This document shows positions 7,248 through 30,131 of a DNA stretch of 30,131 bases, piece by piece. The position numbers and the translations under genes are program-made. Origin of the DNA: a virus (Duplodnaviria > Heunggongvirae > Uroviricota > Caudoviricetes); IMG/VR virus record IMGVR_UViG_2923292180_000002, one strand, 5' to 3'. The notes below the pieces were generated by a model that did not search any database, had not been told where the DNA came from, and worked only from the letters and a program-made list of their open reading frames with translations. Numbering within the stretch: the first letter of the stretch is position 1; each line of letters starts with the position of its first letter.

Positions 7248-7249
7248 TT

Positions 7250-11107: not shown

Positions 11108-11111
11108 GGTT

Positions 11112-12091: not shown

Positions 12092-12157
12092 AACGGGAAG
12101 GATGCCGCCGGGTCATACCGGCGGCAATGTGACGATGAGGTGTCTGGAATGGCACAA

Positions 12158-14016: not shown

Positions 14017-14030
14017 GGTGTTTACTCCGT

Positions 14031-14809: not shown

Positions 14810-14812
14810 GCG

Positions 14813-15016: not shown

Positions 15017-15525
15017 CAGATTTGACTCACGATGCAGCGCGGCTTGTCCTGGATGCGCGCCACTGCCCAGCGCATATCCCGCCACAGCTCATCAATGGTG
15101 CTGTCAATGCTGTCGGCCTTCTTGTCGCCTTTCGCACTGGCATCCACGCCGCGATAACGCTCATAAAGCGATGCGGTCGCCATCGCACACACGGCGCGCT
15201 CGTAGTAAAAAACTTTGATGCTTTCACCGTCGATGTCGTCCGCCGGGACGTCCGCCAGACGCGTAAAACCGGCAGCAATTTTCTGTTCGCGGTACTCGTA
15301 CAGCTCCGCATTCGTCTCCGCCATGCCTGACTTGATGGCCTCACGCAGACGGGCGGGGGCGACGGTCTGCTCAAGGCGCATACGTTCCCGGACGCGCTTC
15401 GGGTCGATATCGGGAAAAAAGAACGTGTTTTTAATCACCGGCTCGTCGCCTGCCGGTTGCGGGATGACCACCGTACCCTCACCGGACACGGGAGCCTCCT
15501 TTCGCGGAATAATCAGCGTCATCAT
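15016..15525 (-). CDS. L: Capsid completion protein L
   Basis: Internal start MMTLIIPRKEAPVSGEG... gives 169 aa (P2 gpL length); the ORF track extends 20 codons further upstream. Confidence 0.85.
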   Translation of the reverse strand: MMTLIIPRKEAPVSGEGTVVIPQPAGDEPVIKNTFFFPDIDPKRVRERMRLEQTVAPARLREAIKSGMAETNAELYEYREQKIAAGFTRLADVPADDIDGESIKVFYYERAVCAMATASLYERYRGVDASAKGDKKADSIDSTIDELWRDMRWAVARIQDKPRCIVSQI

Positions 15526-15624
15526 GACTACCTCTGAAAAGTCGGGCGGTGGACGCCGGTGCAGTGTCAGGTGATTCACCCACACTGACCGGCGTGCCGC
15601 CCTGGCGCGGGGCGCATTCGGTTG

Positions 15625-16368
15625 TTAACTGGCTTTCTTTTTCGGGCGTCCACGTTTTGCCGGTGTCACGCTCCGGGTCTTACGCGTGGCACGGGTGGCC
15701 GCTTTGGGCTGCGGCTCCGGCTTCGGTTTCAGCTCCCGCTCCAGTCGTTCAATCTCTTTTTTGACGCCTGCCTGACAGTCGAGCTGTGTCGCACGTTGCA
15801 GGTGAGCCAGCGCACCGGCGGCATCACCACCGTCACGCAGAAACAGACCGGTGATTTTGTGCAGCTTTGCGCGCACTTCATCAGGCATGTCAGCCGTGGC
15901 GGTCAGTTCAAGGGTCTCCGTCAGCAGGCGGGTATCCACAGACTCACCGGCAGCGTGAGCGCGCATGGCCGCAAGCGCTACCTCCTCGGTGAACATGTAC
16001 GGCGGGGTACGGCGGTGTTTACCCGGCATGGTCAGACCGTACTTCAGGGCATAACGGGCAATCTCCAGCGCACCGGCAATATCGCCGGTATCCAGACGCC
16101 ACAGCATGACCGTCATCAGAATGTCATCCTGTGCACCTTTGCCCTGCTCCAGCACGCCGTTCACCCACGGCAACCAGAACGGCAGCAGTTCGCGTTTTTT
16201 CGCGGCCTTCAGCTCTTTTGAATAAATCGCTTTCAGTGTGCGCTGGTCTGCGGCCAGCTTAACCAGCATCTGCTCATAGACAGTTGCATGTCGCAGCGGG
16301 GCGGCTTCCCGCTGCGCGGTTATCGCTGCCGAGACCCGCATCATGTGGCGCTGTGCGGGACTCGTCAT
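15625..16368 (-). CDS. M: Terminase endonuclease (small) subunit M
   Basis: 247-aa ORF, P2 gpM size and position; basic C-terminal tail. Confidence 0.85.
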   Translation of the reverse strand: MTSPAQRHMMRVSAAITAQREAAPLRHATVYEQMLVKLAADQRTLKAIYSKELKAAKKRELLPFWLPWVNGVLEQGKGAQDDILMTVMLWRLDTGDIAGALEIARYALKYGLTMPGKHRRTPPYMFTEEVALAAMRAHAAGESVDTRLLTETLELTATADMPDEVRAKLHKITGLFLRDGGDAAGALAHLQRATQLDCQAGVKKEIERLERELKPKPEPQPKAATRATRKTRSVTPAKRGRPKKKAS

Positions 16369-16371
16369 CGG

Positions 16372-17445
16372 TTACGCTCCCGGCTCTGCTGTCGCCTTAG
16401 CCGGTGTGGAGAAATCACCGACCTTAATTTTTTCCACCAGACAACCGGCGGCGTAGTCTTCCACCACGTAATCAATGTTCATTGACTCGTAGTTCTCCAC
16501 GCGGTCGAGTTTCGGATTTTCCTCAATCACGCGGCGATGGCTGTCATCCATGTAGTAGATGGACAGGTTTTCCAGCTTCGTGATGAGCATCGCATCCGCC
16601 GGGAAGTACGGGACGCGTACCGCCGGCAGGTTACCGATGCGTTTCTGGCTGATGATGACGTCAGCGGCCAGCATCTCGCTGTTGTCCTGCTCCTTGTTAA
16701 CGATGGGGAAATACTTGTCCGCCAGTAGCTGACGCCCCACAATCACCACAAGGTCAGGGTCTTCCTGATACCACGGCTCAATCAGGTTGTTGGTCGCATC
16801 CATCACCAGTGCATCGAGGCTGGCATAATCACCGCCCTTACCCACGCGGATGACCTCAGAGGTCGTGTGACCTTCCTCGTCAGTAACCTTGCTCATCACG
16901 CGCGCCGGGGCTTCATTGCGGTATTTCTGCAGCCAGCCGACCGCCACATCCTGCAGCATCGGATTGCTGCTGCGGTCAGAGGTTTCGGCACGCTTCACGC
17001 CGTTAAAACCGGCCATGATGAAATCAAGGGACTGGCGTTTGATAATGGCGTTACGGATACGGAGCTGGAAATCCTGATAACGCGCCCACAGGTCCAGCGT
17101 TTTGTAGCGGATATAAAAATCGAAGTTAATCTGGTCGCATTCGTACTTGTTTGACGCCAGCTTCGAGAAGTCCTTCGGCTGACGCTCGGTGCCACCGGCG
17201 GTGTCGGTGGTGCTGGCGATGGAGCCGGTGACACCGATGCCAATTTTTTCCCCTTTCATTTCGCTGACCGGCACAATATTGATGCGGGTCAGAAAGTCAG
17301 AGGACTCCTGCATGGTGTTCATCAGGGTCTGGGTGACCGACGGTTCAACGGTGAACTTTTTCGACACATCACCGGCGTCGATGCCGTTCAGTTCGGCAAC
17401 ACGGGACAGGTAGGCATTAAATTTAAAGCGGGTTTCCTGGCGCAT
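16372..17445 (-). CDS. N: Major capsid protein N
   Basis: 357-aa ORF, P2 gpN size and position. Confidence 0.9.
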   Translation of the reverse strand: MRQETRFKFNAYLSRVAELNGIDAGDVSKKFTVEPSVTQTLMNTMQESSDFLTRINIVPVSEMKGEKIGIGVTGSIASTTDTAGGTERQPKDFSKLASNKYECDQINFDFYIRYKTLDLWARYQDFQLRIRNAIIKRQSLDFIMAGFNGVKRAETSDRSSNPMLQDVAVGWLQKYRNEAPARVMSKVTDEEGHTTSEVIRVGKGGDYASLDALVMDATNNLIEPWYQEDPDLVVIVGRQLLADKYFPIVNKEQDNSEMLAADVIISQKRIGNLPAVRVPYFPADAMLITKLENLSIYYMDDSHRRVIEENPKLDRVENYESMNIDYVVEDYAAGCLVEKIKVGDFSTPAKATAEPGA

Positions 17446-17503
17446 AGTTTTTCCTGAAATTAAGGGTTAATCGTGAAGGTTTTCCCGGACTGACTGACGC
17501 CGG

Positions 17504-18358
17504 TCAGCAGTTCGTCATCAGGGCGTCACCGCCACCACCGGTGGCCTTGCTGCGGCGCTGCTGGGTCAGACTTTCGGTGTGGTCGAGACTGTTTTTCAGG
17601 CGGGTGAATGCCTGGCTGGTTTCATCCGCCCTGTCAGTCACCTCCTGCTTAAGTGCAGAAAAGGCGGTTTCCATCTCAGAGAGGCGCTGCTCAGTGGCGC
17701 TCAGTTTTTCCTGCACATGTTCAGCAACAGCGGTCACCGCTTCATGCACGTCATTCAGACGGGCGTCATCGCTGGCCTGTTTGCGGCCAAAAATGGATTT
17801 CACCTTTTCAGTCAGGGCGGTGAACACGGTTTCAGGCAGGTCTTCAAATTCCAGCTCAACAGGCGTTGCCACTGAAATCAGGTTTTCAGGGCTTAATTTG
17901 AAGCGGTTCAGGGGGTTGTGTTTTGCCGTGCGGCAGAATTCCAGGTATTCCGTGCCGAGGCTTGCCGGGTCATCGGTGACGGCCAGACCCACCAGATAAC
18001 ATTTGCCGGTGTTGGCAAAGTTCGGCTGAATTTCCATTGAGGTGTAGACCTTCTGCGCGGCCTTGTTCATCGCGATAAGGTCATCGGTCGGGGTGATTTT
18101 CGCAAACAGCGCCCATTTGCCTTTCAGCGCCGAATCATCGTCAATCTTTTCGGCCTTCAGTTCGGCCACATCGCCATAACGCTTAAAAATACCGTCAGGC
18201 AGGATGCCGCGCAGATGTTCCAGGTTAATGCGGCAACCATAGACTCGCGGGTCAAAGGTTTCGGCCATTTCCTGAATATCCTGCGCACTGATGACACGCC
18301 CGTCACAGGTGTCACCCTCAACGCCGATACGAAAGAATTTTGAGACTTTTTTTGCCAT
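17504..18358 (-). CDS. O: Capsid scaffolding protein O
   Basis: Internal start MAKKVSKFFRIGVEGDTCDGR gives 284 aa (P2 gpO length); the ORF track start at 18424 is 22 codons upstream. Confidence 0.85.
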   Translation of the reverse strand: MAKKVSKFFRIGVEGDTCDGRVISAQDIQEMAETFDPRVYGCRINLEHLRGILPDGIFKRYGDVAELKAEKIDDDSALKGKWALFAKITPTDDLIAMNKAAQKVYTSMEIQPNFANTGKCYLVGLAVTDDPASLGTEYLEFCRTAKHNPLNRFKLSPENLISVATPVELEFEDLPETVFTALTEKVKSIFGRKQASDDARLNDVHEAVTAVAEHVQEKLSATEQRLSEMETAFSALKQEVTDRADETSQAFTRLKNSLDHTESLTQQRRSKATGGGGDALMTNC

Positions 18359-18531
18359 TGTCAGGAGTCCTGAATAGTGATTAGAGGAGTCACATGTCGG
18401 CATCAGTTTCCCGACGATGCGCATCCTCCGCCATCAGTCCCGGATGGCTTATCACTGACACAACAGCACCTTAGCGAATCGCGGGGCGCGACTCAGTAGC
18501 CTTGCCGTGTATTCATCACGGCGAGGTATTC
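18359..18531. promoter_or_regulatory. Divergent late promoter region (P_O leftward, P_P rightward), expected Ogr-dependent
   Basis: 173-bp gap between the divergent O and P starts. Contains an imperfect dyad GTCGG-N10-CCGAC at 18396..18415. I could not find a clean TGT-N12-ACA element by eye, so exact promoter positions are not assigned. Confidence 0.4.
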
Positions 18532-20304
18532 ATGACCATCACCACAGACACCACTCTTTTACACGACCCGCGTCGTCAGGCGGCGCTGCTGTACTGGCAG
18601 GGATTTTCCGTGCCGCAGATTGCCGCCATGTTGCAGATGAAACGCCCGACGGTGCAGAGCTGGAAACAGCGCGACGGCTGGGACAGCGTTGCCCCCATCA
18701 GCCGTGTCGAAATGAGTCTGGAAGCGCGGCTGACCCAGCTCATCATCAAACCGCAGAAAACCGGCGGTGACTTCAAGGAAATTGACCTGCTCGGACGCCA
18801 GATTGAACGACTGGCACGGGTAAACCGTTACAGTCAGACCGGCAACGAGGCAGACCTTAATCCGAACGTCGCTAACCGCAACAAAGGCGGGCGTCGCAAA
18901 CCGAAAAAGAATTTTTTCAGTGACGAGGCCATCGAAAAGCTGGAGCAGATTTTCTTTGAGCAGTCTTTCGAATATCAGTTGCACTGGTATCGCGCCGGGC
19001 TTGAGCACCGCATCCGCGATATCCTGAAATCCCGCCAGATTGGCGCGACGTTTTATTTTTCCCGCGAGGCGCTGCTGCGTGCCCTGAAAACCGGTCATAA
19101 CCAGATTTTTCTGTCGGCCAGTAAAACGCAGGCGTATGTGTTCCGCGAATACATCATCGCCTTTGCCCGTCTGGTTGACGTTGACCTGACCGGTGACCCG
19201 ATTGTCCTGGGCAATAACGGCGCAAAACTGATTTTTCTCGGCACCAACTCCAACACCGCGCAGAGCCATAACGGCGACCTGTACGTCGACGAGATTTTCT
19301 GGATCCCGAATTTTCAGGTACTGCGTAAGGTGGCATCAGGTATGGCCTCACAGAGTCACCTGCGCTCGACCTATTTCTCCACCCCGTCCACGCTGGCGCA
19401 CGACGCCTACCCGTTCTGGTCAGGTGAACTGTTCAACCGGGGACGCGCCAGCGCCGCCGAACGCGTGGAAATCGACGTCAGTCATAACGCCCTTGCCGGT
19501 GGGCTTCTCTGTGCGGACGGCCAGTGGCGGCAGATTGTCACCATTGAGGACGCCCTGAAAGGTGGCTGCACGCTGTTCGACATTGAGCAGCTCAAACGTG
19601 AAAACAGCGCCGACGATTTTAAAAACCTGTTCATGTGTGAATTTGTTGACGACAAGGCGTCGGTGTTTCCGTTCGAGGAGCTGCAACGCTGCATGGTCGA
19701 CACGCTGGAAGAATGGGAAGACTATGCGCCATTTGCCGCCAATCCGTTCGGCTCCCGCCCGGTATGGATTGGTTACGACCCGTCACACCGTGGCGACAGC
19801 GCCGGATGCGTGGTGCTGGCACCGCCGGTGGTGGCCGGTGGCAAATTCAGAATACTTGAGCGTCACCAGTGGAAAGGCATGGACTTTGCCACCCAGGCGG
19901 AATCCATCTGCAAACTCACCGAAAAATACAACGTCGAATACATCGGTATTGATGCCACCGGCCTCGGTGTCGGCGTGTTCCAGCTCGTGCGCTCGTTCTA
20001 TCCCGCCGCGCGCGATATCCGCTACACACCGGAAATGAAAACCGCAATGGTGCTCAAGGCAAAAGACGTTATCCGCCGTGGCTGTCTGGAATACGACGTC
20101 AGCGCCACCGACATCACCAGCTCGTTTATGGCTATCCGCAAGACCATGACCAGCAGCGGGCGCAGCGCCACCTATGAGGCCAGCCGCAGCGAGGAAGCCA
20201 GCCACGCCGACCTCGCCTGGGCGACCATGCACGCCCTGTTAAATGAGCCACTCACCGCCGGTATCAGCACCCCGCTGACATCCACCATTCTGGAGTTTTA
20301 CTGA
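18532..20304 (+). CDS. P: Terminase ATPase (large) subunit P
   Basis: Start at MTITTDTTLLHDPRRQAALLYWQGFSVPQIAAMLQ gives 590 aa (P2 gpP length); stop overlaps the Q start. Confidence 0.88.
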   Translation: MTITTDTTLLHDPRRQAALLYWQGFSVPQIAAMLQMKRPTVQSWKQRDGWDSVAPISRVEMSLEARLTQLIIKPQKTGGDFKEIDLLGRQIERLARVNRYSQTGNEADLNPNVANRNKGGRRKPKKNFFSDEAIEKLEQIFFEQSFEYQLHWYRAGLEHRIRDILKSRQIGATFYFSREALLRALKTGHNQIFLSASKTQAYVFREYIIAFARLVDVDLTGDPIVLGNNGAKLIFLGTNSNTAQSHNGDLYVDEIFWIPNFQVLRKVASGMASQSHLRSTYFSTPSTLAHDAYPFWSGELFNRGRASAAERVEIDVSHNALAGGLLCADGQWRQIVTIEDALKGGCTLFDIEQLKRENSADDFKNLFMCEFVDDKASVFPFEELQRCMVDTLEEWEDYAPFAANPFGSRPVWIGYDPSHRGDSAGCVVLAPPVVAGGKFRILERHQWKGMDFATQAESICKLTEKYNVEYIGIDATGLGVGVFQLVRSFYPAARDIRYTPEMKTAMVLKAKDVIRRGCLEYDVSATDITSSFMAIRKTMTSSGRSATYEASRSEEASHADLAWATMHALLNEPLTAGISTPLTSTILEFY

Positions 20305-21338
20305 TGAGCAAGAAAAAAGGGAAAACACCGCAACCTGCGGCAAAAAAAATGACCGCCAGCGCCCCGAAAATGGAGGCATTCACCTTTGGTGAGCCGGTGC
20401 CGGTACTCGACCGCCGTGACATTCTGGATTACGTCGAATGCATCAGTAACGGCAGATGGTATGAGCCACCGGTCAGCTTTACCGGTCTGGCAAAAAGCCT
20501 GCGTGCTGCCGTGCATCACAGCTCCCCGATTTACGTCAAACGCAATATTCTGGCCTCGACATTTATCCCGCATCCGTGGCTTTCCCAGCAGGATTTCAGC
20601 CGCTTTGTGCTGGATTTTCTGGTGTTCGGCAATGCGTTTCTGGAAAAGCGTTACAGCACCACCGGCAAGGTCATCAGACTGGAAACCTCACCGGCAAAAT
20701 ATACCCGCCGTGGCGTGGAGGAGGATGTTTACTGGTGGGTGCCTTCCTTCAACGAGCCGACAGCCTTCGCACCTGGCTCCGTGTTTCATCTGCTGGAGCC
20801 GGATATTAATCAGGAGCTGTACGGCCTGCCGGAATATCTCAGCGCCCTTAACTCTGCCTGGCTGAATGAGTCAGCCACGCTGTTCCGCCGCAAGTATTAC
20901 GAAAACGGCGCTCATGCCGGATACATCATGTACGTTACCGATGCCGTGCAGGATCGCAACGATATCGAAATGCTTCGCGAAAACATGGTGAAGTCGAAAG
21001 GCCGCAACAACTTTAAAAACCTGTTTCTCTATGCCCCGCAGGGGAAAGCCGACGGCATTAAAATTATCCCGCTCAGTGAAGTGGCGACGAAGGACGATTT
21101 TTTTAATATCAAAAAAGCCAGCGCCGCTGACCTGCTGGACGCACACCGCATCCCCTTTCAGTTGATGGGCGGCAAGCCGGAGAACGTCGGGTCACTGGGA
21201 GATATTGAGAAAGTGGCAAAGGTCTTTGTCCGCAATGAACTTATCCCGTTACAGGACAGGATTCGGGAAATAAACGGCTGGCTCGGTCAGGAGGTCATCC
21301 GCTTTAAAAACTACTCACTGGACACTGACAACGGCTGA
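20304..21338 (+). CDS. Q: Portal vertex protein Q
   Basis: 344-aa ORF, P2 gpQ size, immediately upstream of cos. Confidence 0.9.
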   Translation: MSKKKGKTPQPAAKKMTASAPKMEAFTFGEPVPVLDRRDILDYVECISNGRWYEPPVSFTGLAKSLRAAVHHSSPIYVKRNILASTFIPHPWLSQQDFSRFVLDFLVFGNAFLEKRYSTTGKVIRLETSPAKYTRRGVEEDVYWWVPSFNEPTAFAPGSVFHLLEPDINQELYGLPEYLSALNSAWLNESATLFRRKYYENGAHAGYIMYVTDAVQDRNDIEMLRENMVKSKGRNNFKNLFLYAPQGKADGIKIIPLSEVATKDDFFNIKKASAADLLDAHRIPFQLMGGKPENVGSLGDIEKVAKVFVRNELIPLQDRIREINGWLGQEVIRFKNYSLDTDNG

Positions 21339-21342
21339 ACAT

Positions 21343-21365
21343 CGCCGCCTGCGGGCGGCTTTTTT
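21343..21365 (+). terminator. Rho-independent terminator downstream of Q
   Basis: cgccgcc-tgcg-ggcggc stem-loop followed by a run of six T, starting 5 nt after the Q stop. Confidence 0.7.
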
Positions 21366-21507
21366 ACACCCCGCCATCACGCCCTCACACGCTCACCACC
21401 GCACAAAACAGCCCGCAGACACACCAACGCCCCGGCGAACAATCTAAACGCCATCACGACGCGCTCAGACGCTGAAAAAATAAAATCAGCACCACCGCCA
21501 GCGCGCA

Positions 21508-21526
21508 GTGCTTTCCCCGCCTCGCC
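21508..21526. other. cos: cos site (19-nt cohesive end sequence)
   Basis: gtgctttccccgcctcgcc is the exact reverse complement of GGCGAGGCGGGGAAAGCAC, the P2 cohesive end as I remember it, at the expected position next to Q. Confidence 0.8.
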
Positions 21527-21682
21527 CGCCCGCTTAATGGGGCGGTTTTAATGCGGGTGCATAACCACTTCTTACCCACATCAATTCTGGTCAAGCCAAG
21601 CAGTACAGCTTATGATTTCAAGATGCAAACTCATGCAGCAATGTTAAATTCTGCATCCATCGGTTTGAAAATGTGATCCGTT

Positions 21683-22837
21683 TTACGAATTCAAACTCAA
21701 CTCTGTTTGACTCTTTTGAACATTAATAGTTTTACCAGTAAGGACATCCAAAACCCCTGCAGCAACAGCCTGCGCCAATTTACAAGGCACAGCATTCCCT
21801 ATCTGACGCCAAATTGACGAATTTTTCCCCACAAAGACATAATTACTCGGGAATGTTTGAATCAAAAGAGCCTCATCTATCGTTAGTCGACGTAAACGAC
21901 TAGGTACATCGTGCATATCTTTTGGCTCACCACCATTCATTAGATGATTATGATAAGTCTCAACATAACTTGTTGAGCCATCATAAAGGTGTTCTTCATC
22001 AATAATTGGTGTCCTATTCCCCCCCATAGAAGCAGCTATAGTTGAAGCATACCCATTCGGGTTAATTGGTCTTCCCTGCCCGTTAAACATCATTCCCGCG
22101 TAAGGTGACTTCCGTAATACTGGCTTAGCAGCATTTGTAATCCTTGCATTACAGACTCTTGAATTGTTTGGATTACCCGCTCGCCCTAAAGGCCGAATAA
22201 TCTCACCAACTGTTGGCGAAAGATATTGGTATTTTTTTATCGCCGCCTCAACTCGTTTCACATCATTTTCGGAACGAAACCCTATAAAAAACATACGTTC
22301 CCTATTCTGAGGAACGCCAAAATCTTTAGAATTCAGCACCAGCAAGGCTGAACGATAGCCTGACTTTTCAGCCATCTTAAACAGTTCACACCTAACTGGT
22401 TCAAATTTGGACAACTGTGCTAAAGCCTTAACATTCTCCATAACAAAGCATTCTGGTTGAATTATATCCACCGCCCGCATGAATGACATAACCAGCTTAC
22501 TACGTGGATCATGAGCGTCCATTTTCCCTGCCACAGAAAATCCTTGGCATGGAGGCCCACCAAAAACACAACCTATATTTTTCAGCCCAGACAATTCACT
22601 TAGCATCTCATCAATATCACCACAAAAAACAGGTGATTCATGATTAAGCTTAAATGTATCACATGCATCCTTATCTATATCATTGGCCCAAACTGTTCGG
22701 AACCCGGCATTAGAGAAACCGACATCCATCCCTCCTGCCCCAGTAAATAAGCTCACAGCTGAAATTTTGTTCACTTCTTTAGCACCAATTATTCGATTTT
22801 GGAATAAAACCAATGATAGGTAAGGATCGACACACAA
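21683..22837 (-). CDS. DNA (cytosine-5)-methyltransferase
   Basis: 384-aa ORF with C5-MTase motifs in order: FTGAGGMDVGF (I), GGPPCQGFS (IV, catalytic PC), ENV (VI), QNRERMFFIG (VIII), a variable target-recognition region, and GNAVP (X). The annotated start is a TTG; an in-frame GTG 15 codons downstream is an alternative. Region is AT-rich compared with the phage backbone. Confidence 0.85.
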   Translation of the reverse strand: MCVDPYLSLVLFQNRIIGAKEVNKISAVSLFTGAGGMDVGFSNAGFRTVWANDIDKDACDTFKLNHESPVFCGDIDEMLSELSGLKNIGCVFGGPPCQGFSVAGKMDAHDPRSKLVMSFMRAVDIIQPECFVMENVKALAQLSKFEPVRCELFKMAEKSGYRSALLVLNSKDFGVPQNRERMFFIGFRSENDVKRVEAAIKKYQYLSPTVGEIIRPLGRAGNPNNSRVCNARITNAAKPVLRKSPYAGMMFNGQGRPINPNGYASTIAASMGGNRTPIIDEEHLYDGSTSYVETYHNHLMNGGEPKDMHDVPSRLRRLTIDEALLIQTFPSNYVFVGKNSSIWRQIGNAVPCKLAQAVAAGVLDVLTGKTINVQKSQTELSLNS

Positions 22838-22857
22838 TCAATCACCTTCTAAACCAC

Positions 22858-23127
22858 ATGGCAAAACGACAACCAACTATACATGATCATAGATACAGGT
22901 GCCTAGTCCAGCTTCTCACCAAACTACGCAAAGAAGCTTCTCTTTCGCAGTCAGAATTGGCCATTTTTCTAGGATTATCACAATCAGATATATCTAAAAT
23001 CGAAAGCTTTGAAAGGCGATTAGATGCTTTAGAACTATTTGAATTATTAGAGGTGGTTGCAAGCCGATTAGGTCTACCAATGGATATCTTACTAAAGGAC
23101 ACCTATGAAAGTATTAGTAAATCATGA
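22858..23127 (+). CDS. HTH (XRE-family) regulator, putative R-M controller (C) protein
   Basis: Helix-turn-helix LSQSELAIFLGLSQSDISKIE. Divergent from the methyltransferase and overlapping the start of the downstream nuclease-like gene by 23 nt, the classic C-R arrangement. Start could instead be the upstream ATG at 22813. Confidence 0.6.
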   Translation: MAKRQPTIHDHRYRCLVQLLTKLRKEASLSQSELAIFLGLSQSDISKIESFERRLDALELFELLEVVASRLGLPMDILLKDTYESISKS

Positions 23128-24160
23128 GCAAGCCTATAATGTAATTATAAATGCAATCAACGATGCAAAAAAATTAACTGATTACAAAACAAATAATCAA
23201 TGGGTCTCCATTCAAAATGTAATTTTAGGCACCCACCTTACATACAGATATATACTTATTACTGGTTTACTTGCAAAAGCAACAGACCCTAGAGTAAACC
23301 CTCTGGCTTTACAAGCTAATGCCCCCGTAGACGGAGCCTATGATGCAAGAAGTTTATGTCATTCGGTAATAGTAGGCAAAGTAGAAGGCCCATTTTTAGA
23401 GGGTAAGTTAGGCGCATCAAATGAGCCATTTCTAAATAAACCAGCTCGTTACATGCTCCACTCCTCTGATAACCCTGTGCGCAGAGGAAATGATAAGGTT
23501 TTACAACAACTTTCAATTGATATATTACATGCAGCAACAACCCAAACCTTAGCTTATGAAATGCTTGTTATTGCATTATATTTTACCCTACAGCGAACCA
23601 ATAGAGTTATAACGCCGAACTCAATTAATTTTGATTTCCATAAGATTATTTATAATATTATATCTCATCCTTGTGATGGAGAAACATGCGCGATTGCTGC
23701 CGCAATTTCGTTACATTTATTAGGTGAACAAAGAGGATGGATAATAAAAGCACATCCCGTCAATCAGGCCGGTAGCTCCTCAAAAGAGATACTGGACATA
23801 GATGTATATCATGATGATATAGTTTTCCTTTCTATAGAAGTGAAAGACAAACCATTCAATTATCAAGATGTTAATCACGCCGTTTCAAAAGCATCTGCAT
23901 CCGGGATTTCAAAAGTTATCTTCCTTAAAGGGCCAAGAGCAACAAACTTAGATATTGATGAGTCTCTTGCGATTGAGAACGCTGCGACAAAAGGTGTTTC
24001 ACTAAGCTTTAGTGACGTCATGACATTCACAACAACATGTTATGCGTTATCGCCACTATTAAGTAATGACAGAATAATAGATTTCATAAATAACACTTTA
24101 AAAGACATCAGAGCTAAAGATAGCACTATAGAATACATACAATCCATATTTAAAAATTAA
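23105..24160 (+). CDS. Putative restriction endonuclease / PD-(D/E)xK-like nuclease (uncharacterised family)
   Basis: 351-aa ORF, strongly AT-rich, with a candidate PD-(D/E)xK motif in ILDIDVYHDDIVFLSIEVKDK (D...E-V-K). Linked to the C-like gene and the divergent C5-MTase. No family recognised by eye. Confidence 0.5.
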   Translation: MKVLVNHEQAYNVIINAINDAKKLTDYKTNNQWVSIQNVILGTHLTYRYILITGLLAKATDPRVNPLALQANAPVDGAYDARSLCHSVIVGKVEGPFLEGKLGASNEPFLNKPARYMLHSSDNPVRRGNDKVLQQLSIDILHAATTQTLAYEMLVIALYFTLQRTNRVITPNSINFDFHKIIYNIISHPCDGETCAIAAAISLHLLGEQRGWIIKAHPVNQAGSSSKEILDIDVYHDDIVFLSIEVKDKPFNYQDVNHAVSKASASGISKVIFLKGPRATNLDIDESLAIENAATKGVSLSFSDVMTFTTTCYALSPLLSNDRIIDFINNTLKDIRAKDSTIEYIQSIFKN

Positions 24161-24167
24161 TACTCCC

Positions 24168-24202
24168 GGGACAATATAGTTCACAACTACGTTGTCCCTT
24201 TT
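24168..24202 (+). terminator. Possible terminator after the nuclease-like gene
   Basis: gggacaa...ttgtccc stem (loop of about 16 nt) followed by TTTT, just after the stop at 24160. The long loop makes this weaker than the Q terminator. Confidence 0.35.
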
Positions 24203-24253
24203 AAAACAGTCAAGCAATTGCATTATATTAATTATTTACTTTTTATCACAATC

Positions 24254-26566
24254 TCATAATTCATACGCTCTCCAATCACATATAACAGGATAACTGAAGC
24301 TTCTCCCGTCGTAATTTACAGTTGCCCCACGCGCCAGCGCCTCAAGCTCCCATCGCTGCGGCCTGATACCGTTCTGAGCAAGGTCAACGCGGATACGGGT
24401 AATTTGCATTCGTTCCGACCGGGTCAGTCTGGCCGATGGCGCTATTTCATGCGGTTTTAACGGGCTTCCGCTTCTTTGCTGACGGTTTGGTGTTCTCAGG
24501 TCGTGTTTTAATGCGCCCCTGAGCGCCCTCACGACCTCCTGGTCATTCCATTCGATAACACCGTCATCAACCAGATTAAGCACTGCGGCGGCGTGCTCAG
24601 AAGGTGTGGGAGCCGGTAACGAAGCATCACTACCGGTGAGCTTTCCACAGTTATTGACAGGACTCCGAGGCGCGGCGATGCCGCTTTTTAAAGTCAAAGG
24701 CTGAACGACCGGAACTTTCGGCACAATGCGCCAGTCCGTCGTTCTGGTGATATGAATATGACGCGCGCCGAGATGCGGCGCGTAAATGCCGACCACTCTC
24801 TCGACCTCTTCCTCGTACTCGTTAACGTCATCCGACGGGCTACGGGCGACCCTGACAGTCTGACAATCGCGCGGGACATTTGCCCCACCCTGCGCGCTGA
24901 TATACAGCGCAAAATCGCCACTGTCTGCGGCAGCGCGTGCAGCCTCGACGCGTTCGTCAAACTCATCAGCAATGCTGACGCCGCGAGGCAATTTGCGTAG
25001 TTCACGGTAAGCCCCCATTGTCGGCAGGCCAACCGTTTTAAATTGCGGAATGCGCCACGTTGACGCCCATGCGGTAACAGCCGCGGCAGTGTCTTTCAGC
25101 GGCCTGCCGGTATCGTTATCGAGCTGACCATCCAGTGCATAGCCGTCGATGTTTTTTGAAATGTATTTCGCGATATATCCCGCAGCACCGCCCCGGTTAA
25201 GGTGTTTTGCCTGAAAACGGTTTCGCGCAGCTCCTCTTTCGTCTCCATCCTCTTTGAGCGCGTAGCGACGCATGATTTCGATAATCTGGTTACGCTGGCG
25301 TGGATTACAAAAAAGCATCATATGCCAGTGCGGCGTTCCGTCGTGGTGTGGCTCGACGACACGCAAACCGTAGACCTGTAAATCATTATCCTTGAATGCC
25401 GTGCGCATCAGGCTCCAGATGCGGCAGAGATAACGCTGCGCATCCTTTGGATTAAATGCCTCATCGTTCCAGCCGTGATTAAGCTGAACGGTTTTACTTT
25501 CGCCTTTTCTGACCTGACGTGTCGGGTGATACTTTGACGGCGCGGTCAGCGTGATAAACATCCCCACATCACCCTCTGCGGCGGCGTAACGCTCAATACC
25601 GGCAATGGTGTTCATCAGCTCCATCCGGCGAATTTCAGGATTAGAAATACTGCCCATCACCTTACTGATAAGGTCGATACGCTCGCCGGTTTCCCTGTTT
25701 TCAAGGTCACACGATTTAAGAAATTCCAGATTTGCCTGGCGGCGCGCACGCACATCACGAATGGCGTGTTTACTGGCATAAGGAGAACGGTCTTTATTGA
25801 CCTCCCCGACAGCTATCAGTAACGCTTCATGCCAGCGCATACGCTGGCCTTTAAGCTGATGAGTCCACCACTCATCGTTAAACAGACGGGCAATGGCAGA
25901 ATATGCCTGCCTCGTGGTCATCTGCCCTTTACGGTATTTTTTCCAGTAGAGAGGGGAAATATTGAAAGCACGTGCAGCGCCAGCAACATGACCATACAGG
26001 TGAGCCTGCGCCTCATCCGTAAACAGTGATTCTTTTTCGCCATGCGCATCCACCCAGGCATCGCAGAGTTCCTCATACATCATGAAAAGCTGCGATGAGA
26101 TACGGGCGGCAAACTTTTTCAGCTCCTTGTCATTCATTCCTGGCAGGCGCGCATAGTGGTCACGCTCTGCCAGAAACAGCAACGACGCGTCGGTGTTCAT
26201 TTCATGGCGCTGATTCACACGCTCAATACGCGGCCATAAACGACGCTGAAAAGTGGATGTGAGGAAATAAAACCCGTGTACCGGACTTTTATTGCGCCGG
26301 ATGTAGTCATAGCGTGAAGTAAACAGCGAGCGCAAAAAGTAAGGCAGGCGGTTAATCGTGGATAAAACACCTTGCACCTGACGCATCTCGTCACGTGTAA
26401 GAGGTCTTTCTCGCCCGACGGCCTCGCGTGGCGCGTTCCATGCATAAGCACCGGTAAACGTCTCACCGGTGCCTGCGGCAAATGCTGACGGAGGGACAAA
26501 ACGCCCGGAGGCTTTAACGGCCATATGAGCCAAAAGCCTCTGAACAACGCTTGCTGAGTTGCTCAA
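24254..26566 (-). CDS. A: Replication initiation protein A (rolling-circle replication endonuclease)
   Basis: 770-aa ORF in the P2 gene A position at the end of the early operon, with a two-tyrosine motif region GYIAKYISKNIDGYALDG. The real start may be the internal ATG at 26524 (MAVKAS...). Confidence 0.85.
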   Translation of the reverse strand: MSNSASVVQRLLAHMAVKASGRFVPPSAFAAGTGETFTGAYAWNAPREAVGRERPLTRDEMRQVQGVLSTINRLPYFLRSLFTSRYDYIRRNKSPVHGFYFLTSTFQRRLWPRIERVNQRHEMNTDASLLFLAERDHYARLPGMNDKELKKFAARISSQLFMMYEELCDAWVDAHGEKESLFTDEAQAHLYGHVAGAARAFNISPLYWKKYRKGQMTTRQAYSAIARLFNDEWWTHQLKGQRMRWHEALLIAVGEVNKDRSPYASKHAIRDVRARRQANLEFLKSCDLENRETGERIDLISKVMGSISNPEIRRMELMNTIAGIERYAAAEGDVGMFITLTAPSKYHPTRQVRKGESKTVQLNHGWNDEAFNPKDAQRYLCRIWSLMRTAFKDNDLQVYGLRVVEPHHDGTPHWHMMLFCNPRQRNQIIEIMRRYALKEDGDERGAARNRFQAKHLNRGGAAGYIAKYISKNIDGYALDGQLDNDTGRPLKDTAAAVTAWASTWRIPQFKTVGLPTMGAYRELRKLPRGVSIADEFDERVEAARAAADSGDFALYISAQGGANVPRDCQTVRVARSPSDDVNEYEEEVERVVGIYAPHLGARHIHITRTTDWRIVPKVPVVQPLTLKSGIAAPRSPVNNCGKLTGSDASLPAPTPSEHAAAVLNLVDDGVIEWNDQEVVRALRGALKHDLRTPNRQQRSGSPLKPHEIAPSARLTRSERMQITRIRVDLAQNGIRPQRWELEALARGATVNYDGRSFSYPVICDWRAYEL

Positions 26567-26789
26567 CCTGCGCGTTTAAATCAGCAAAAGACTTTGCGCT
26601 TCCGGTCAGAATATCGTGATGCATCAGGCCGGAAACGAGCTGGCTTAATTTCGGGTAATAACCAACCACCGACAGCCATTCCTGACCGGCGTTTTTACCG
26701 CTTTCCGCTCTCTTTTTCTCGTGGAGAATAAACTGAAAGCTGTCACTGGTAACGACATAACGTTCGCCAATTTCAATACGAATACTCAT
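26514..26789 (-). CDS. Early-operon hypothetical protein (P2 orf83-like position)
   Basis: 91-aa ORF translationally coupled between the TraR-like gene and A. Confidence 0.6.
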   Translation of the reverse strand: MSIRIEIGERYVVTSDSFQFILHEKKRAESGKNAGQEWLSVVGYYPKLSQLVSGLMHHDILTGSAKSFADLNAQVEQLSKRCSEAFGSYGR

Positions 26790-27010
26790 GCCGTTCTCCG
26801 GTAATGTTTGTTTTTTGCTTCAAAGACTGACTGACAGGAAACACAACGCGTGGCTGACGGATAAGCCGCACGACGGGCAGCAGGTATTGGCGCATCACAC
26901 TCTTCGCAAACCAGCGAAGAAACACCGCAATGTTTTACCCTTGCCGCGTTAATCTGGCGCTCCAGTAATTCAGCCTGTTGTTCCTGAATAAAATCTACGT
27001 TGTCCGGCAT
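26786..27010 (-). CDS. TraR/DksA-family C4 zinc-finger protein (P2 orf82-like)
   Basis: 74-aa ORF with CEECDAPIPAARRAAYPSATRCVSCQ (C-x2-C...C-x2-C). Confidence 0.75.
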   Translation of the reverse strand: MPDNVDFIQEQQAELLERQINAARVKHCGVSSLVCEECDAPIPAARRAAYPSATRCVSCQSVFEAKNKHYRRTA

Positions 27011-27012
27011 TA

Positions 27013-27315
27013 TCAGCTCCTTTTATCGTTAAGTTTCTTGGATACATCAGCGCAATAACTGGCGAGTTCTGTCGTTAATTTTGTCAGTTCATCCACTGAG
27101 GAAATTTGCTTGTGGAACACAGCGCGTTTAACAAGTAAATTGACCACATCAGACAGGAGGTTTAATTCATTCTGATAAATCGCGATAACAGATTCAGTTA
27201 TGTCGCGTTTTTCTTTATCAAGACAAAGTTGAATAAGAGATAAATCACCATTTTCCATAACGGCGATTTTTAAGGCGTTATTCAGTAATACAACTGAATG
27301 AGAACAGGACATCAA
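27013..27315 (-). CDS. Early-operon hypothetical protein (P2 orf81-like position)
   Basis: 100-aa ORF, AT-rich, in the early operon between B and A. Confidence 0.55.
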
Positions 27316-27536
27316 AGCACCTCCCCGCGAGACAATCCGATATTGTGAAATTTTTCCGACTCCTGACTGAGCAGCTCGACTATCTCCACGCGGGATAACT
27401 CCGCCTTTGTGATGTGGCGAATCATGGCGTCAAGATGAGAAGAAAAGCGCGTCGCAGCGTCGGCCTGTGCTTCGGTTCTGGCCTGTTGCAGCAGTAATGC
27501 GTATTTACCGCACTGATTTTCAGAAACTGTATGCAT
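27312..27536 (-). CDS. Early-operon hypothetical protein (P2 orf80-like position)
   Basis: 74-aa ORF immediately downstream of B, overlapping the next ORF start. Confidence 0.55.
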
Positions 27537-27599
27537 GACTTTCTCCAGGCAAAAAGAAGCCCCGCACGATTAAGTGCGTTAAAAACTCTGGTTAATTAC

Positions 27600-28100
27600 T
27601 TAATGCAGATATTGCTCTGGTTTTACCGACGTCAGAATTGTCGGTGCATACTCAAACAGACTGAATAATTCACGTAATGCACGGAATAAAGCATCACGCC
27701 AGTAACATGATTCTTCATTAATTCGCCAGTATGGCTGGTTAAATTCTTTTTCTGTCAGTCGTGCGTGCATAAATAAAGTGCGACGCTGACTGACTGTTAA
27801 AAAACTAATATATGCATACTCACTTGCGCCAACCTGACGGCGTTTTGAGAATGCCCCGCGCAATTCATCAATTGCACATACCAGTCGTTCACGTTCGACG
27901 TCGTTCATTTCTTCAAAACGCATCGTTGCGTGACGCTGTTTTAACTGAGCATGGAAGCAAACCGTTAACCGTTCGCGCTCCATCATCTGATTATAATAAT
28001 CACATGTATCCTGCCAGCGAGGAACGGCAAGATGCTTACCAATTATCCGGCGCATAGCTGCTGGCTGTTTTTCAACGAGATTGAGCGTCATCACTGTCAT
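27600..28100 (-). CDS. B: Replication protein B (helicase-loader-like)
   Basis: 166-aa ORF, P2 gpB length and position in the early operon. Confidence 0.8.
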   Translation of the reverse strand: MTVMTLNLVEKQPAAMRRIIGKHLAVPRWQDTCDYYNQMMERERLTVCFHAQLKQRHATMRFEEMNDVERERLVCAIDELRGAFSKRRQVGASEYAYISFLTVSQRRTLFMHARLTEKEFNQPYWRINEESCYWRDALFRALRELFSLFEYAPTILTSVKPEQYLH

Positions 28101-28357
28101 TTCCAGACCCTCCGGCTTTTCAGAAAGGTCAGAGCCTTTTTTACCGGACTCTGTTTTTTGGTGCGGATAATGATTCCCTTACGCCCCTTACCGTGGGTGA
28201 TGGTGAAGTCAATCGCCCTGGGGCTTTCGTTACGCAATAACTGAGCAATACAACGAGGCTCGTTCATCCTTTCCACCTTAAGCCGCACGGCCATGTCTTG
28301 ATTTGCTGTAACTAATGCGATTTTTCCAGTCATGCCATTCTGTCGGAGCTTCATCAA
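28097..28357 (-). CDS. Early-operon hypothetical protein (P2 orf78-like)
   Basis: 86-codon ORF. The internal start at 28333 (MTGKIALV...) would give 78 aa; either start overlaps the cox-like gene end. Confidence 0.5.
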   Translation of the reverse strand: MMKLRQNGMTGKIALVTANQDMAVRLKVERMNEPRCIAQLLRNESPRAIDFTITHGKGRKGIIIRTKKQSPVKKALTFLKSRRVWK

Positions 28358-28649
28358 CTAGCTGGGCTGCGTACTTGTCCCACTCACGGCGATTAATCCA
28401 TAATTCAGCTTTCCCTCTTGGTTTTAATGGGTCTGTCATGTAGAAGGCTGGCAGCTTTCCTGCTTTAGCCATTTCAGCCACCGCGCGTGGTGTCTTACCG
28501 ATGTAAAGAGCAAAACCTTCTTTCGACAGCAAATCAGATGGGCGCTCTGAAATCTGAATGCTTTTACGTTTGGCTTCATTTTCGAAACTTGCCTCATCGC
28601 TAGTTGGACAAGAAATTTCTACATTTGTCGTCACTTTGCTATCCTCCAT
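28278..28649 (-). CDS. cox: Cox-like excisionase / early-promoter-proximal regulator
   Basis: First gene of the early operon, divergent from C. HTH-like segment FALYIGKTPRAVAEMAKAGKLPAFYMTDP resembles P2 Cox (FAKLIGKSTGAVRRMIDKGKLPVIDMTDP, from memory). 123 codons is longer than the 91-aa P2 Cox, so the start is uncertain. Confidence 0.65.
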   Translation of the reverse strand: MEDSKVTTNVEISCPTSDEASFENEAKRKSIQISERPSDLLSKEGFALYIGKTPRAVAEMAKAGKLPAFYMTDPLKPRGKAELWINRREWDKYAAQLVDEAPTEWHDWKNRISYSKSRHGRAA

Positions 28650-28742
28650 AAGATTTGCGATTCACCAACTGGAGCCATCTAGAGCCTTTTTGAGCGAATC
28701 ACAAATTGCCAAGTAACAATATAATTGGAGATTAGCAAAATT
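28650..28742. promoter_or_regulatory. Immunity switch region (expected face-to-face Pe/Pc promoters and C operators)
   Basis: 93-bp gap between divergent cox-like and C genes. Near-repeat gcgattcac (28657..28665) and gcgaatcac (28694..28702), 37 bp apart, are candidate operator half-sites. Confidence 0.4.
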
Positions 28743-29042
28743 ATGTCAAGTGAACAAAGTGAGAAACTAAAGCTCATCCGTGAATCCGAACGCCTTAAAA
28801 CTAAGGAACTTGCTGAATTAATTGGAATTAATTACTACACATATCATGGATATGAATCAGGAAAATCAAAAATGCCTATGGAAGCAGGTATGAAGCTGTT
28901 TAAACATCCACGCTTTCGCAAGTATCGTGACTGGTTCATGTTTGATGAAACAGATCCAGCAGCTGGACAAATAGCCCCGGCTCTCGCACACATTGGGCAA
29001 GACTCAACAACCTTGCACCACTCAGACCAGAAGACTGGCTGA
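28743..29042 (+). CDS. C: Immunity repressor C
   Basis: Start at MSSEQSEKLKLIRESERLKTKELAELIG; C-terminus ...AGQIAPALAHIGQDSTTLHHSDQKTG closely matches the P2 C C-terminus as I recall it. 99 aa. The ORF track start at 28725 is 6 codons upstream. Confidence 0.8.
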   Translation: MSSEQSEKLKLIRESERLKTKELAELIGINYYTYHGYESGKSKMPMEAGMKLFKHPRFRKYRDWFMFDETDPAAGQIAPALAHIGQDSTTLHHSDQKTG

Positions 29043-29135
29043 CGATTTATTCAGCATATGTGTGTAGTAAATGTACGAAAGAAAATTGCATTAATTTTCA
29101 AGTAGTAGAAGTAAACAGCGTCATCGGAGGGCTTT

Positions 29136-30131
29136 ATGTCTATTAAAAAGCTCGATGATGGTCGTTATGAAGTGGACGTCAGACCGCAGGGTGCAGATGG
29201 AAAACGTATCAGGCGGAAATTTAAAACTAAAGGTGAAGCTCAAGCATTCGAACGTCATGTACTGGTTAACTACCACAACAAAGAGTGGTTGGAGAAACCA
29301 GCCGACCGCCGAACTCTTACAGAGTTGTTAGGCAGATGGTGGATATATCACGGAAAATCACATGAGCGTGGAGATATTGAACGGGGGCGTTTAACGACAA
29401 TAATCGCCAAATTTGCAGAAATGGGAGTGTCCAGAGCTGACCAGCTAACAAAGAAAACGATAACTGATTATCGCGTTGTAATGATGAACGATGGTCTGAA
29501 ACCAGCCAGCGTAAATCGACATCTGGCAATAATGAGCGGGATGTTCACCAAGTTAATTGACGCCGGTGAATACCACTCTCACAACCCGTTCCGTGAGATT
29601 AAACGGTTACGTGAAGCTGTTACGGAAATGGCTTTTTTGTCCAGTGAAGAGATTACGCGGCTGTTATCCATGCTTGATGGTGATGAATTAAATGCAACTC
29701 TGGTCTGCCTTTCTACTGGTGGACGCTGGAGTGAAGTGTCTAATTTAAAAGCTGAACACATCATTAACCAGATGGTTACGTTTATGAAAACTAAAAACGG
29801 AAAACGCAGGACAATTCCCGTTTCGCAGGACCTGATTAAACGGATCAAGACCAAAAATTCAGGCAGGCTTTTTAATGCCAGTTACTACAAAGTGCGTAAC
29901 GCTCTCAGGGAAGTAAAACCCGATTTACCTGACGGACAAGCAGTACATGTTTTGAGGCATACATTTGCCACACATTTTATAATGAATGGAGGTAACATAA
30001 TCACATTGCAGCGCATCCTGGGTCATTCTAACATTCAGCAAACTATGACCTACGCACACTTTGCACCGGATTTCTTACAAGATGCTGTGACTCTTAACCC
30101 GGTGTCAGGAATGTCCATAATGCGTCCATAA
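29136..30131 (+). CDS. int: Tyrosine integrase
   Basis: 331-aa ORF with the catalytic region ...VLRHTFATHF...LGHSNIQQTMTYAHF (R-H-R-Y type); downstream of C as in P2. Stop codon is the last 3 nt of the window. Confidence 0.9.
   Translation: MSIKKLDDGRYEVDVRPQGADGKRIRRKFKTKGEAQAFERHVLVNYHNKEWLEKPADRRTLTELLGRWWIYHGKSHERGDIERGRLTTIIAKFAEMGVSRADQLTKKTITDYRVVMMNDGLKPASVNRHLAIMSGMFTKLIDAGEYHSHNPFREIKRLREAVTEMAFLSSEEITRLLSMLDGDELNATLVCLSTGGRWSEVSNLKAEHIINQMVTFMKTKNGKRRTIPVSQDLIKRIKTKNSGRLFNASYYKVRNALREVKPDLPDGQAVHVLRHTFATHFIMNGGNIITLQRILGHSNIQQTMTYAHFAPDFLQDAVTLNPVSGMSIMRP

Follow-up and report, generated by a model that had tools for sequence, protein, structure and literature searches.

The locus studied here raises the question of how a restriction-modification (R-M) cassette in a phage genome may time its nuclease relative to its methyltransferase, and which element between the genes would act as the switch. 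The window, i.e. the whole stretch of 30,131 nucleotides that was analysed (IMG/VR record IMGVR_UViG_2923292180_000002, Caudoviricetes), holds three such genes recognised by Pfam. These are a C5 cytosine methyltransferase gene (M; 21683–22774, minus strand; 363 aa; DNA_methylase, PF00145, E 1.3e-66), a controller gene with an XRE-type helix-turn-helix (HTH) domain (C; 22858–23127, plus strand; 89 aa; HTH_3, E 1.8e-6) and a SacI-family restriction endonuclease gene (R; 23105–24160, plus strand; 351 aa; RE_SacI, PF09566, E 1.9e-76). The R product matches the RE_SacI profile with 258 bits (cut-off 19.3) over profile positions 4–276 of 276. The triad, with M on the minus strand, C and R on the plus strand and a 23-nt C/R overlap, is kept in Citrobacter, Enterobacter, Yersinia and metagenomic loci, and C, operator and M occur in the same arrangement in very distant bacteria. 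The original prediction of a C-controlled type II R-M operon, in which M diverges from C and R while these two overlap and share one direction, is supported by the Pfam assignments, the conserved triad and the operator described below.

The three genes lie in a low-GC cassette (21555–24287; GC 38% versus 52–58% in the flanks) which appears to have been acquired horizontally. The BLAST match to P2 (AF063097) stops at window position 21554 (P2 33547) and restarts at 24288 (P2 30270), the cassette taking the place of the 3' end of orf91, tin and old, between cos/Q and gene A in P2 synteny. Most of the window is 97% identical to P2 and the prophage looks largely complete across it; the cassette evidently fills the old/tin ‘moron’ slot in a prophage of the P2 type. 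Among 5426 complete E. coli genomes, 19 carry it at ≥99% identity, that of strain NCTC9088 being one, and a search for it in deposited phage genomes gave no match.

Translated mechanically, the open reading frames give a 384-aa methyltransferase from TTG 22837 on the minus strand and, on the plus strand, a C protein of 104 aa from ATG 22813 or of 89 aa from ATG 22858. The divergent starts had been thought to overlap; read literally, with M from TTG 22837 and C from ATG 22813, this layout gives a 25-nt head-to-head overlap that would itself be the regulatory device. Both starts exist, many database entries carry a 384-aa M and a 104-aa C, and PGAP uses TTG 22837. The homologues argue otherwise. 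M is called at 361–366 aa in six homologous loci, from a start equivalent to GTG 22774 (ATG in some), and C is called at 89–100 aa; its conservation begins with MAKR at ATG 22858, neither the 15-residue extension from ATG 22813 nor the N-terminal extension of M being conserved as protein. Indels among the homologues over 22830–22857 are not multiples of three, so that this stretch is non-coding. GTG 22774 is preceded, at a distance of 8 nt, by an SD-like GGTG (AGGTG in most homologues), and the 363-aa product of this start is exactly the deposited UniRef entry Q83VT0, filed under Peduovirus P2. PGAP itself pairs its 384-aa M with C at ATG 22858, in which case the two genes do not overlap. With starts at GTG 22774 and ATG 22858 the divergent genes are 83 bp apart, separated by a control region at 22775–22857. 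An overlap of coding sequences as the regulatory device is highly improbable, and TTG 22837 and ATG 22813 are, judging from the homologues, annotation artefacts. RNA structure in the 5'UTR of M was not significant against shuffles (z within −0.9 to +0.9), a predicted 5-bp pairing of anti-SD (UACCU) and SD (AGGUG) being weak. Public annotation of the cassette is inconsistent, with lengths of 348, 363, 384 or 397 aa for M and of 69–104 aa for C.

Residues 6–89 of C are 100% identical to chain A of PDB 2EF8, a solved HTH dimer structure for which a paper gives the description of a putative E. coli transcription factor bearing an HTH domain. C shows marginal sequence similarity to C.BclI and C.AhdI (E 0.015–0.046). 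Like a controller protein, C is a small XRE-type HTH protein encoded upstream of R and in the same orientation, with a palindromic operator upstream of its own gene. The expected overlap of its stop codon with the start of R was borne out: TGA 23125–23127 lies inside R, 20 nt downstream of ATG 23105. The resulting 23-nt overlap is kept in three relatives (L036, L038, L039) and is longer where C bears a C-terminal extension. Translational coupling of R to C, which had been suggested together with this overlap, was not upheld. R has an SD of its own (AAGGA, 23095–23099, 5 nt ahead of ATG 23105), and RNA structure at the C/R junction was neither significant nor conserved (z = +1.0; consensus −2.15 kcal/mol), which lends no support to obligatory coupling from C to R.

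The locus is almost certainly the control region of EcoT38I, a C-regulated type IIP R-M cassette, as far as its sequence can tell. EcoT38I reportedly comes from a defective P2 prophage of E. coli TH38, where it is said to lie between the P2 genes A and Q with C inside a 330-nt M–R region; its C protein reportedly activates R and represses M. This system was reportedly cloned and assayed, and its C protein apparently crystallised, years ago; its recognition site is GRGCYC (BanII-like), as against GAGCTC of the SacI type. By the protein entries and the published features no difference from EcoT38I is detectable; the prophage looks largely complete across the window, as against the reportedly defective prophages of TH38. 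The likeness covers the layout (M and R head-to-head, C between them and partly overlapping R), the gap of exactly 330 nt between 22774 and 23105, the A/Q insertion, the P2-taxon entry for M, the 2EF8 entry for C, and rare codons. A published rare-codon table for EcoT38I gives GGG at M codons 12 and 15, which is found here only if M starts at GTG 22774, and AUA at R codon 15, which is found only with R read from ATG 23105. GRGCYC is absent from the whole window and from wild-type P2, and because wild-type P2 also lacks it the absence is uninformative on the specificity of the cassette. Methylation-sensitive promoter control through GRGCYC was considered and discarded, as the window has no such site.

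The original prediction had seen no palindromic C-box by eye. A dedicated inverted-repeat scan of 22700–22960 revealed one within the intergenic region, the perfect 6-7-6 palindrome TTATTC GATTTTG GAATAA at 22789–22807 (core TATnC-N7-GnATA at 22790–22806), which exceeds in length every other perfect inverted repeat of that interval; a generic repeat finder with a 6-nt seed had overlooked it. Within the palindrome, ATTCGATTTTGGAAT (22791–22805) is invariant across seven enterobacterial loci. The core was found again upstream of distant C homologues, where its two halves vary symmetrically (TATGC..GCATA and TATCC..GGATA, for example), and it is enriched about 200-fold upstream of C homologues (Fisher p = 8e-15). 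Scored with a position weight matrix (PWM) of the family operator, the 17-bp core reaches 24.9 and the next best site in the whole window 9.3. Its invariance, symmetric covariation, enrichment and unique PWM match mark 22789–22807 as the predicted operator of C. Sorokin et al. include C.EcoT38I in their list of C proteins for which an upstream site is predicted. No second operator was found within 22700–22960 (best other PWM score −4.1), and none that would repress could be recognised in the enterobacterial loci. Three relatives (L003, L005, L018) have a weaker second operator 15 bp downstream of the main box; since the same centre-to-centre spacing has been reported for C.PvuII, the main box would correspond to OL, the distal operator.

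A weak C/R promoter is predicted at 22799–22827 on the plus strand, with a −35 hexamer TTGGAA (22799–22804) within the operator's right half, a 17-nt spacer and a −10 hexamer AAGGAT (22822–22827). The −10 is poor, and the promoter scan did not call this site; the assignment draws on conservation. All seven enterobacterial loci keep A2, A5 and T6 of the −10 unchanged, a −35-like TTGG(A/C)A lies within the operator, and in most of the distant loci an nAnnAT hexamer follows at a fixed offset (operator end +16 to +22), as in TTGGAA-18-AACTAT (L041) and TTGGCA-18-AACGAT (L042). The predicted +1 at about 22834–22836 would give a 23-nt leader without a Shine-Dalgarno sequence. Leaderless C mRNAs are frequent, though not the rule throughout, among controller proteins. 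Seven divergent loci have their start codon 28–30 nt beyond the operator, where the +1 is predicted, which suggests leaderless mRNAs; the operator-to-C-start gap of 51 nt found here implies the leader of about 23 nt.

Promoter candidates for M lie to the right of the operator on the minus strand. The best of them is a sigma70-like site, TAGGCA-18-TATAGT, at 22876–22905 (+1 about 22869), which falls within codons 7–16 of C and is the only promoter-like site common to all seven enterobacterial loci. The match, read from 22905 to 22876, coincides exactly with a block of C in which synonymous sites are frozen: a single codon is used for 9 of the 10 invariant residues, as against 6 of the 35 in the remainder of C (Fisher p = 4.8e-5). 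The peptide TIHDH of this block is written with different codons in L041, as is the near-identical TIHDD of L042. The spacer of the candidate promoter is frozen as well, which a plain promoter does not explain; it contains the palindrome ATGATCAT with a GATC, in the context TATAC-ATGATCAT-AGATA; GATC sites stand at 22825 and 22885. This palindrome was also considered as a C-box and rejected, its half-sites being TATAC/TATCT and its spacer 8 nt rather than 7 nt. A second minus-strand site, TTGATT-17-TATCAT at 22813–22841, would place its +1 (about 22806) at the right edge of the operator; its equivalents are confined to L002 and L035, and in L038 the box-proximal site is a different one. In five loci (L008, L010, L012, L041, L042) the start codon of M is 1–6 nt from the operator, so that transcription of M must start in the operator or cross it, and here, with the best candidate inside C codons 7–16, M transcription would have to cross it. 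There is a precedent in the PvuII system, in which two leftward pvuIIM promoters oppose pvuIICR. Any overlap at this locus would more likely be one between transcription units, with the M promoter inside C.

According to the reading we favour, with a probability of roughly three in four, C would regulate the timing of expression through a single operator between the non-overlapping M (22774 to 21683) and C (22858–23127) genes, with R at 23105–24160. After entry into a naive cell, M would be transcribed leftward from one or more promoters to the right of the operator, the site in C codons 7–16 being the best candidate. The weak C/R promoter (+1 about 22835) would meanwhile yield a trickle of C/R mRNA lacking a Shine-Dalgarno sequence, and readthrough of RNA polymerase from the M promoter may suppress C/R further. 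Once accumulated, the C dimer would bind the operator, centred at about −37 and lying over the −35, in the geometry of a distal activating operator elsewhere. Bound C would raise transcription of C/R, in a positive feedback by which R is switched on late, and would also block transcription of M, which starts at or passes the operator. R would be translated from the same mRNA, from its own SD and its ATG within the 3' end of C.

The same geometry, with the operator covering the whole −35 hexamer and centred at about −37 rather than −41.5, could equally repress the C/R promoter. C would then be chiefly a repressor or roadblock, bound over its own −35 and in the way of M transcription, without positive feedback, and R would be expressed from a constitutive promoter inside C. 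The enterobacterial loci, with no recognisable second operator, are compatible with this, and non-canonical C systems exist: a roadblock is described for Kpn2I and C-independent expression of R for Csp231I. We nevertheless consider it rather unlikely that C acts in this way. The operator stands where relatives with the 15-bp double operator have their distal box, and a −10 that is weak yet conserved (nAnnAT) is typical of C promoters which depend on an activator. The promoter that R would need is not seen either, as the scan accepts no plus-strand site within C ahead of R. Moreover, C.EcoT38I is said to be a positive regulator of R. As to the frozen block, it might be an RNA element, or a cluster of rare codons that slows translation of C and so delays R. 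Codons 8–16 do contain four conserved codons that are rare in E. coli (ATA, AGA, AGG, CTA), and near-start clusters of this kind tune R-M expression in another system. However, non-rare two-fold codons (CAT, GAT, CAT, TAC, TGC) are frozen as well, neither the block nor the C leader together with it folds better than shuffles (z −0.9 to +0.9), and the borders of the block are the −35 and −10 of the one promoter-like site present in all seven loci. An RNA element or codon cluster is therefore quite unlikely.

Returning to the M promoter inside C, a more specific proposal can be put forward tentatively, and we hold it to be possible rather than probable. Positions 22876–22905 would be dual-coding, carrying the main M promoter, whose antisense transcription would run across the C start codon, the promoter of C/R and the operator, and the frozen spacer palindrome would be a second site, for Dam/SeqA or another protein. 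Convergent promoters would then form a toggle, in which transcriptional interference and a roadblock by C time M versus R, in place of the two-operator switch that this lineage has apparently lost.

The circuit resembles those of C.PvuII, C.AhdI and C.Esp1396I in having a small XRE-type HTH dimer whose gene directly precedes R and is co-transcribed with it, a divergent M, an operator covering the −35 of a weak promoter that depends on an activator, and opposing M promoters, as far as these features are predicted here. Of the leaderless mRNA and 15-bp double operators which those circuits also have, the former is predicted and the latter are found in relatives of this locus; here, one recognisable operator and a predicted 23-nt leader stand against the leaderless, double-operator C.PvuII type. 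The operator itself (TATTC-N7-GAATA) is unrelated to that type and has neither GACT..AGTC boxes nor a GTG spacer. No GACTNNNAGTC with at most one mismatch, as in the C.PvuII-like class (Sorokin motifs 1–6, 35-bp double box), was found in 22700–22960, where only the single 17–19-bp palindrome is present. Motif 8, that of C.EcoO109I and C.Csp231I, is CTAAG-N5-CTTAG and has no match with up to two mismatches in the same interval. These two are also enterobacterial C proteins with a single-palindrome operator instead of the PvuII double box; they have a long C-terminal extension, unlike C here. C.EcoO109I is carried on a P4/P2-type prophage. As for the nuclease, M-C-R cassettes with a SacI-family (PF09566) R also occur in Thalassospira, in Legionellales and Bryobacteraceae metagenome-assembled genomes (MAGs), and in L041.

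The importance of the locus is modest, as C-controlled R-M systems are textbook material and this one is a known and ordinary example; what is refined are its starts, operator and promoter geometry. Comparative evidence settles the starts of an inconsistently annotated cassette, and the predicted operator gives the 2EF8 structure a candidate DNA target. The motif TATnC-N7-GnATA, together with the 28–30-nt spacing in compact relatives, applies to a clade of C proteins that spans the Proteobacteria and reaches MAGs of Acidobacteriota and Planctomycetota. Within it, the enterobacterial lineage may have swapped the second operator for a leader and an intragenic antisense promoter for M.

The window is a P2-type prophage with 95–98% nucleotide identity to phage P2 across most of its length (matching blocks 1–6683, 9776–12091, 12156–21554 and 24288–28267). 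P2 homology ends at 21554, just beyond cos, and restarts at 24288 within gene A. The insert between them (21555–24287, 2733 bp) takes the place of the 3' end of P2 orf91, tin and old, and its GC content is 38% against 52–58% in the flanks. It encodes a C5 cytosine methyltransferase (M, minus strand; PF00145, E = 1.3e-66), an HTH_3 protein (C, plus strand; E = 1.8e-6) and a SacI-family restriction endonuclease (R, plus strand; PF09566, E = 1.9e-76). Three other regions without a nucleotide match to P2 are typical mosaic variation of P2-like prophages: 6684–9775, the tail-fibre/fun(Z) region with different ORFs (444, 200, 146 and 124 aa), 12092–12155, where only ~64 bp are left at the position of orf30, and 28268–30131, the cox/C-repressor/integrase end. 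The cassette occurs at no less than 99% identity in 19 of 5426 complete E. coli genomes, chromosomal every time, and was absent from all deposited phage genomes. An Enterobacter ludwigii cassette (L035) is flanked by a PIN-domain gene and a sorbitol PTS operon, and in Yersinia aldovae (L036/L037) it adjoins ogr/D/U of a P2-like remnant. Since these cassettes are outside an intact P2 context, the cassette moves independently of the A–Q slot.

This R-M system has been published before. EcoT38I reportedly has the specificity GRGCYC and is located in a P2 prophage, with genes A and Q on either side; its M and R genes are said to lie head-to-head, 330 nt apart, with a C gene within the gap that partially overlaps R and whose product is said to activate R and repress M. 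With starts at GTG 22774 for M and ATG 23105 for R, the gap in the window is exactly 330 nt, and only with these starts does the window reproduce exactly the published rare-codon table of EcoT38I (R codon 15, AUA; M codons 12 and 15, GGG). The 363-aa M is identical in sequence to UniRef Q83VT0, filed under 'Peduovirus P2', and residues 6–89 of the C protein show 100% identity to PDB 2EF8 chain A, which one paper presents as a putative transcription factor from E. coli whose HTH domain superposes on controller proteins. No source was found that attaches the name EcoT38I to Q83VT0 or 2EF8. Sorokin et al. include C.EcoT38I in their list of C proteins from REBASE for which an upstream site is predicted. 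Judged from these ties, it is near-certain that the cassette is the EcoT38I system.

The original prediction named the right kind of system; its argument from overlapping divergent M and C starts was wrong. The ORF starts it quoted are present as mechanical ORFs, and PGAP too currently takes TTG 22837 for M, a choice contradicted by comparison with six homologous M(−)/C(+)/R(+) loci (an Enterobacteriaceae MAG, Citrobacter, Enterobacter, Yersinia aldovae and two metagenomic contigs). In those of the loci with gene calls, M has 361–366 aa. Its start (ATG or GTG) aligns at the nucleotide level to 22774, downstream of AGGTG, a conserved motif that reads GGTG in the window. In the alignment of C homologues, conservation begins only at MAKR (ATG 22858), the 15-residue extension from ATG 22813 being unrelated between them, and the stretch equivalent to 22830–22857 has many indels that are not multiples of three. 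The true starts are therefore 22774 for M and 22858 for C, and the coding regions are separated by 83 bp of non-coding DNA. Public annotations disagree on both starts (M, 348, 363, 384 or 397 aa; C, 69, 73, 89 or 104 aa).

No obvious C-box had been seen by eye, yet this intergenic region contains a clear one. The operator, at 22789–22807, is a perfect 6-7-6 palindrome, TTATTC-GATTTTG-GAATAA, and the longest perfect inverted repeat within 22700–22960. It encloses ATTCGATTTTGGAAT (22791–22805), invariant in the intergenic alignment; the Yersinia operator carries a symmetric change of the outer pair (ATATTC..GAATAT). The core TATnC-N7-GnATA was found again upstream of C homologues of only 40–58% identity, from Thalassospira, Legionellales, Robiginitomaculum, Bryobacteraceae, Thiotrichaceae, other Gammaproteobacteria and Planctomycetota MAGs, and its variable positions change symmetrically (e.g. 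TATGC..GCATA, TATCC..GGATA). Exact cores occupy 9 of 2052 upstream positions in 18 distant loci versus 2 of 115,558 background positions, a ~200-fold enrichment (Fisher p = 8e-15), and a profile built from the operator sites gives 24.9 at 22790, with no other position in the window exceeding 9.3. The sequence bears no relation to either the PvuII-type double box or the EcoO109I/Csp231I motif CTAAG-N5-CTTAG. Many distant loci keep the neighbourhood, with a divergent C5 methyltransferase and, downstream of C, a SacI-family nuclease (L003, L005, L008, L041) or an unassigned ORF (L007, L010); C and its operator thus make up a module that is old and portable. One C homologue, in a distant gammaproteobacterial MAG (L012, 4016–4804), is a 262-aa ORF with an N-terminal HTH followed by ~170 residues without a Pfam match; the operator is the same, and a C5 methyltransferase gene lies divergently beside it. 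Either a fusion of C or a frameshift might account for this ORF.

Spacings around the operator are conserved as well. The C start codon lies 28–30 nt past it in seven highly divergent loci (L004, L005, L007, L008, L012, L041, L042), where its right half reads as a −35-like TTGG(A/C)A and a −10-like nAnnAT follows 16–22 nt past it (L041, TTGGAA-18-AACTAT-6-GTG; L042, TTGGCA-18-AACGAT-6-GTG). These arrangements look typical of leaderless C mRNAs, a common feature of the C-protein family. The enterobacterial group has the same operator-promoter unit with a variable gap of 51–65 nt to the ATG. In the window the predicted plus-strand C/R promoter comprises −35 TTGGAA (22799–22804), a 17-nt spacer and −10 AAGGAT (22822–22827), whose A2, A5 and T6 are invariant in all seven enterobacterial loci. 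Given this unit and the gap, transcription is predicted to start near 22834–22836, leaving a 23-nt leader without a Shine-Dalgarno sequence and placing the operator at about −45 to −29. A second, weaker copy occurs 15 bp downstream in L003, L005 and L018, the centre-to-centre spacing reported for C.PvuII, so that the strong box corresponds to the distal, activating operator; the profile scan detected no second copy in the window or its close relatives.

To the immediate right of the operator, 22813–22827 (ATGATAGGTAAGGAT; minus strand, TTACCTAT) has the conserved positions A..G..AGG..A..AT. In the M 5'UTR, a weak 5-bp pairing of UACCU with the M Shine-Dalgarno AGGUG is possible across the operator hairpin, and the element may serve as an anti-SD, belong to a promoter or represent a degenerate second operator. 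GATC is rare in the prophage (16 versus ~120 expected), and two copies fall in the control region, one at 22825 overlapping the predicted −10 (AAGGATC) and not conserved in homologues, the other at 22885. An influence of Dam methylation through them is possible.

M start codons lie only 1–6 nt from the operator in L008, L010, L012, L041 and L042; therefore, M transcription initiates within the operator or crosses it, which fits C as a negative regulator of M. A promoter scan of the window returned no plus-strand candidates and two on the minus strand, TTGATT-17-TATCAT (22841..22813) and TAGGCA-18-TATAGT (22905..22876), the latter alone present in all seven enterobacterial loci. It coincides exactly with C codons 7–16, where 9 of 10 invariant residues are each encoded by a single codon throughout the seven sequences, against 6 of 35 elsewhere in C (Fisher p = 4.8e-5). 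L041 encodes the peptide TIHDH of this block with different codons, and L042 has TIHDD with near-identical ones. As RNA folding gave no support for structure, the frozen synonymous sites and exact promoter match lead us to read the block as a probable M promoter embedded in C. A precedent is PvuII, which has two leftward pvuIIM promoters opposing pvuIICR. Transcription from the candidate would pass in antisense through the C start codon, the C/R promoter and the operator. Its spacer is also frozen, holding the invariant palindrome ATGATCAT with GATC 22885, which a plain promoter does not explain.

The predicted overlap of the C stop with the nuclease start is real and kept in homologous loci (23 nt; TGA 23125–23127, ATG 23105). 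The translational coupling proposed from it is not demonstrated: R has its own AAGGA 5 nt before the ATG, and folding gave neither significant nor conserved RNA structure at the junction. The two genes are very likely co-transcribed. The main alternative, C as a repressor or roadblock with R driven separately, as in Kpn2I or Csp231I, is unlikely, the strong box corresponding to an activating operator. We favour instead a switch in which M would be made first, from one or more promoters right of the operator, while the C/R promoter would be weak and its mRNA poorly translated; read-through from the M promoter may suppress it further. Accumulated C dimer would then bind 22789–22807 and stimulate the C/R promoter, giving positive feedback and late R, and the bound dimer would hinder M transcription. 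The described system is refined by the true starts, a comparatively defined operator, the distinction of leadered from leaderless C mRNAs, and a candidate M promoter within C.

GRGCYC, which we take to be the EcoT38I/BanII site, has no occurrence in the 30,131-bp window (26 ± 5.5 expected from shuffles, ~13 from a Markov estimate) and none in the 33,593 bp of wild-type P2 (AF063097), which lacks the cassette. Other GC-rich palindromes are also depleted (GGCGCC, 0 versus 15 expected; GCCGGC, 2 versus 28). The window and wild-type P2 share this site avoidance, which is thus a property of the P2 lineage and would let P2 carry this R-M system safely.
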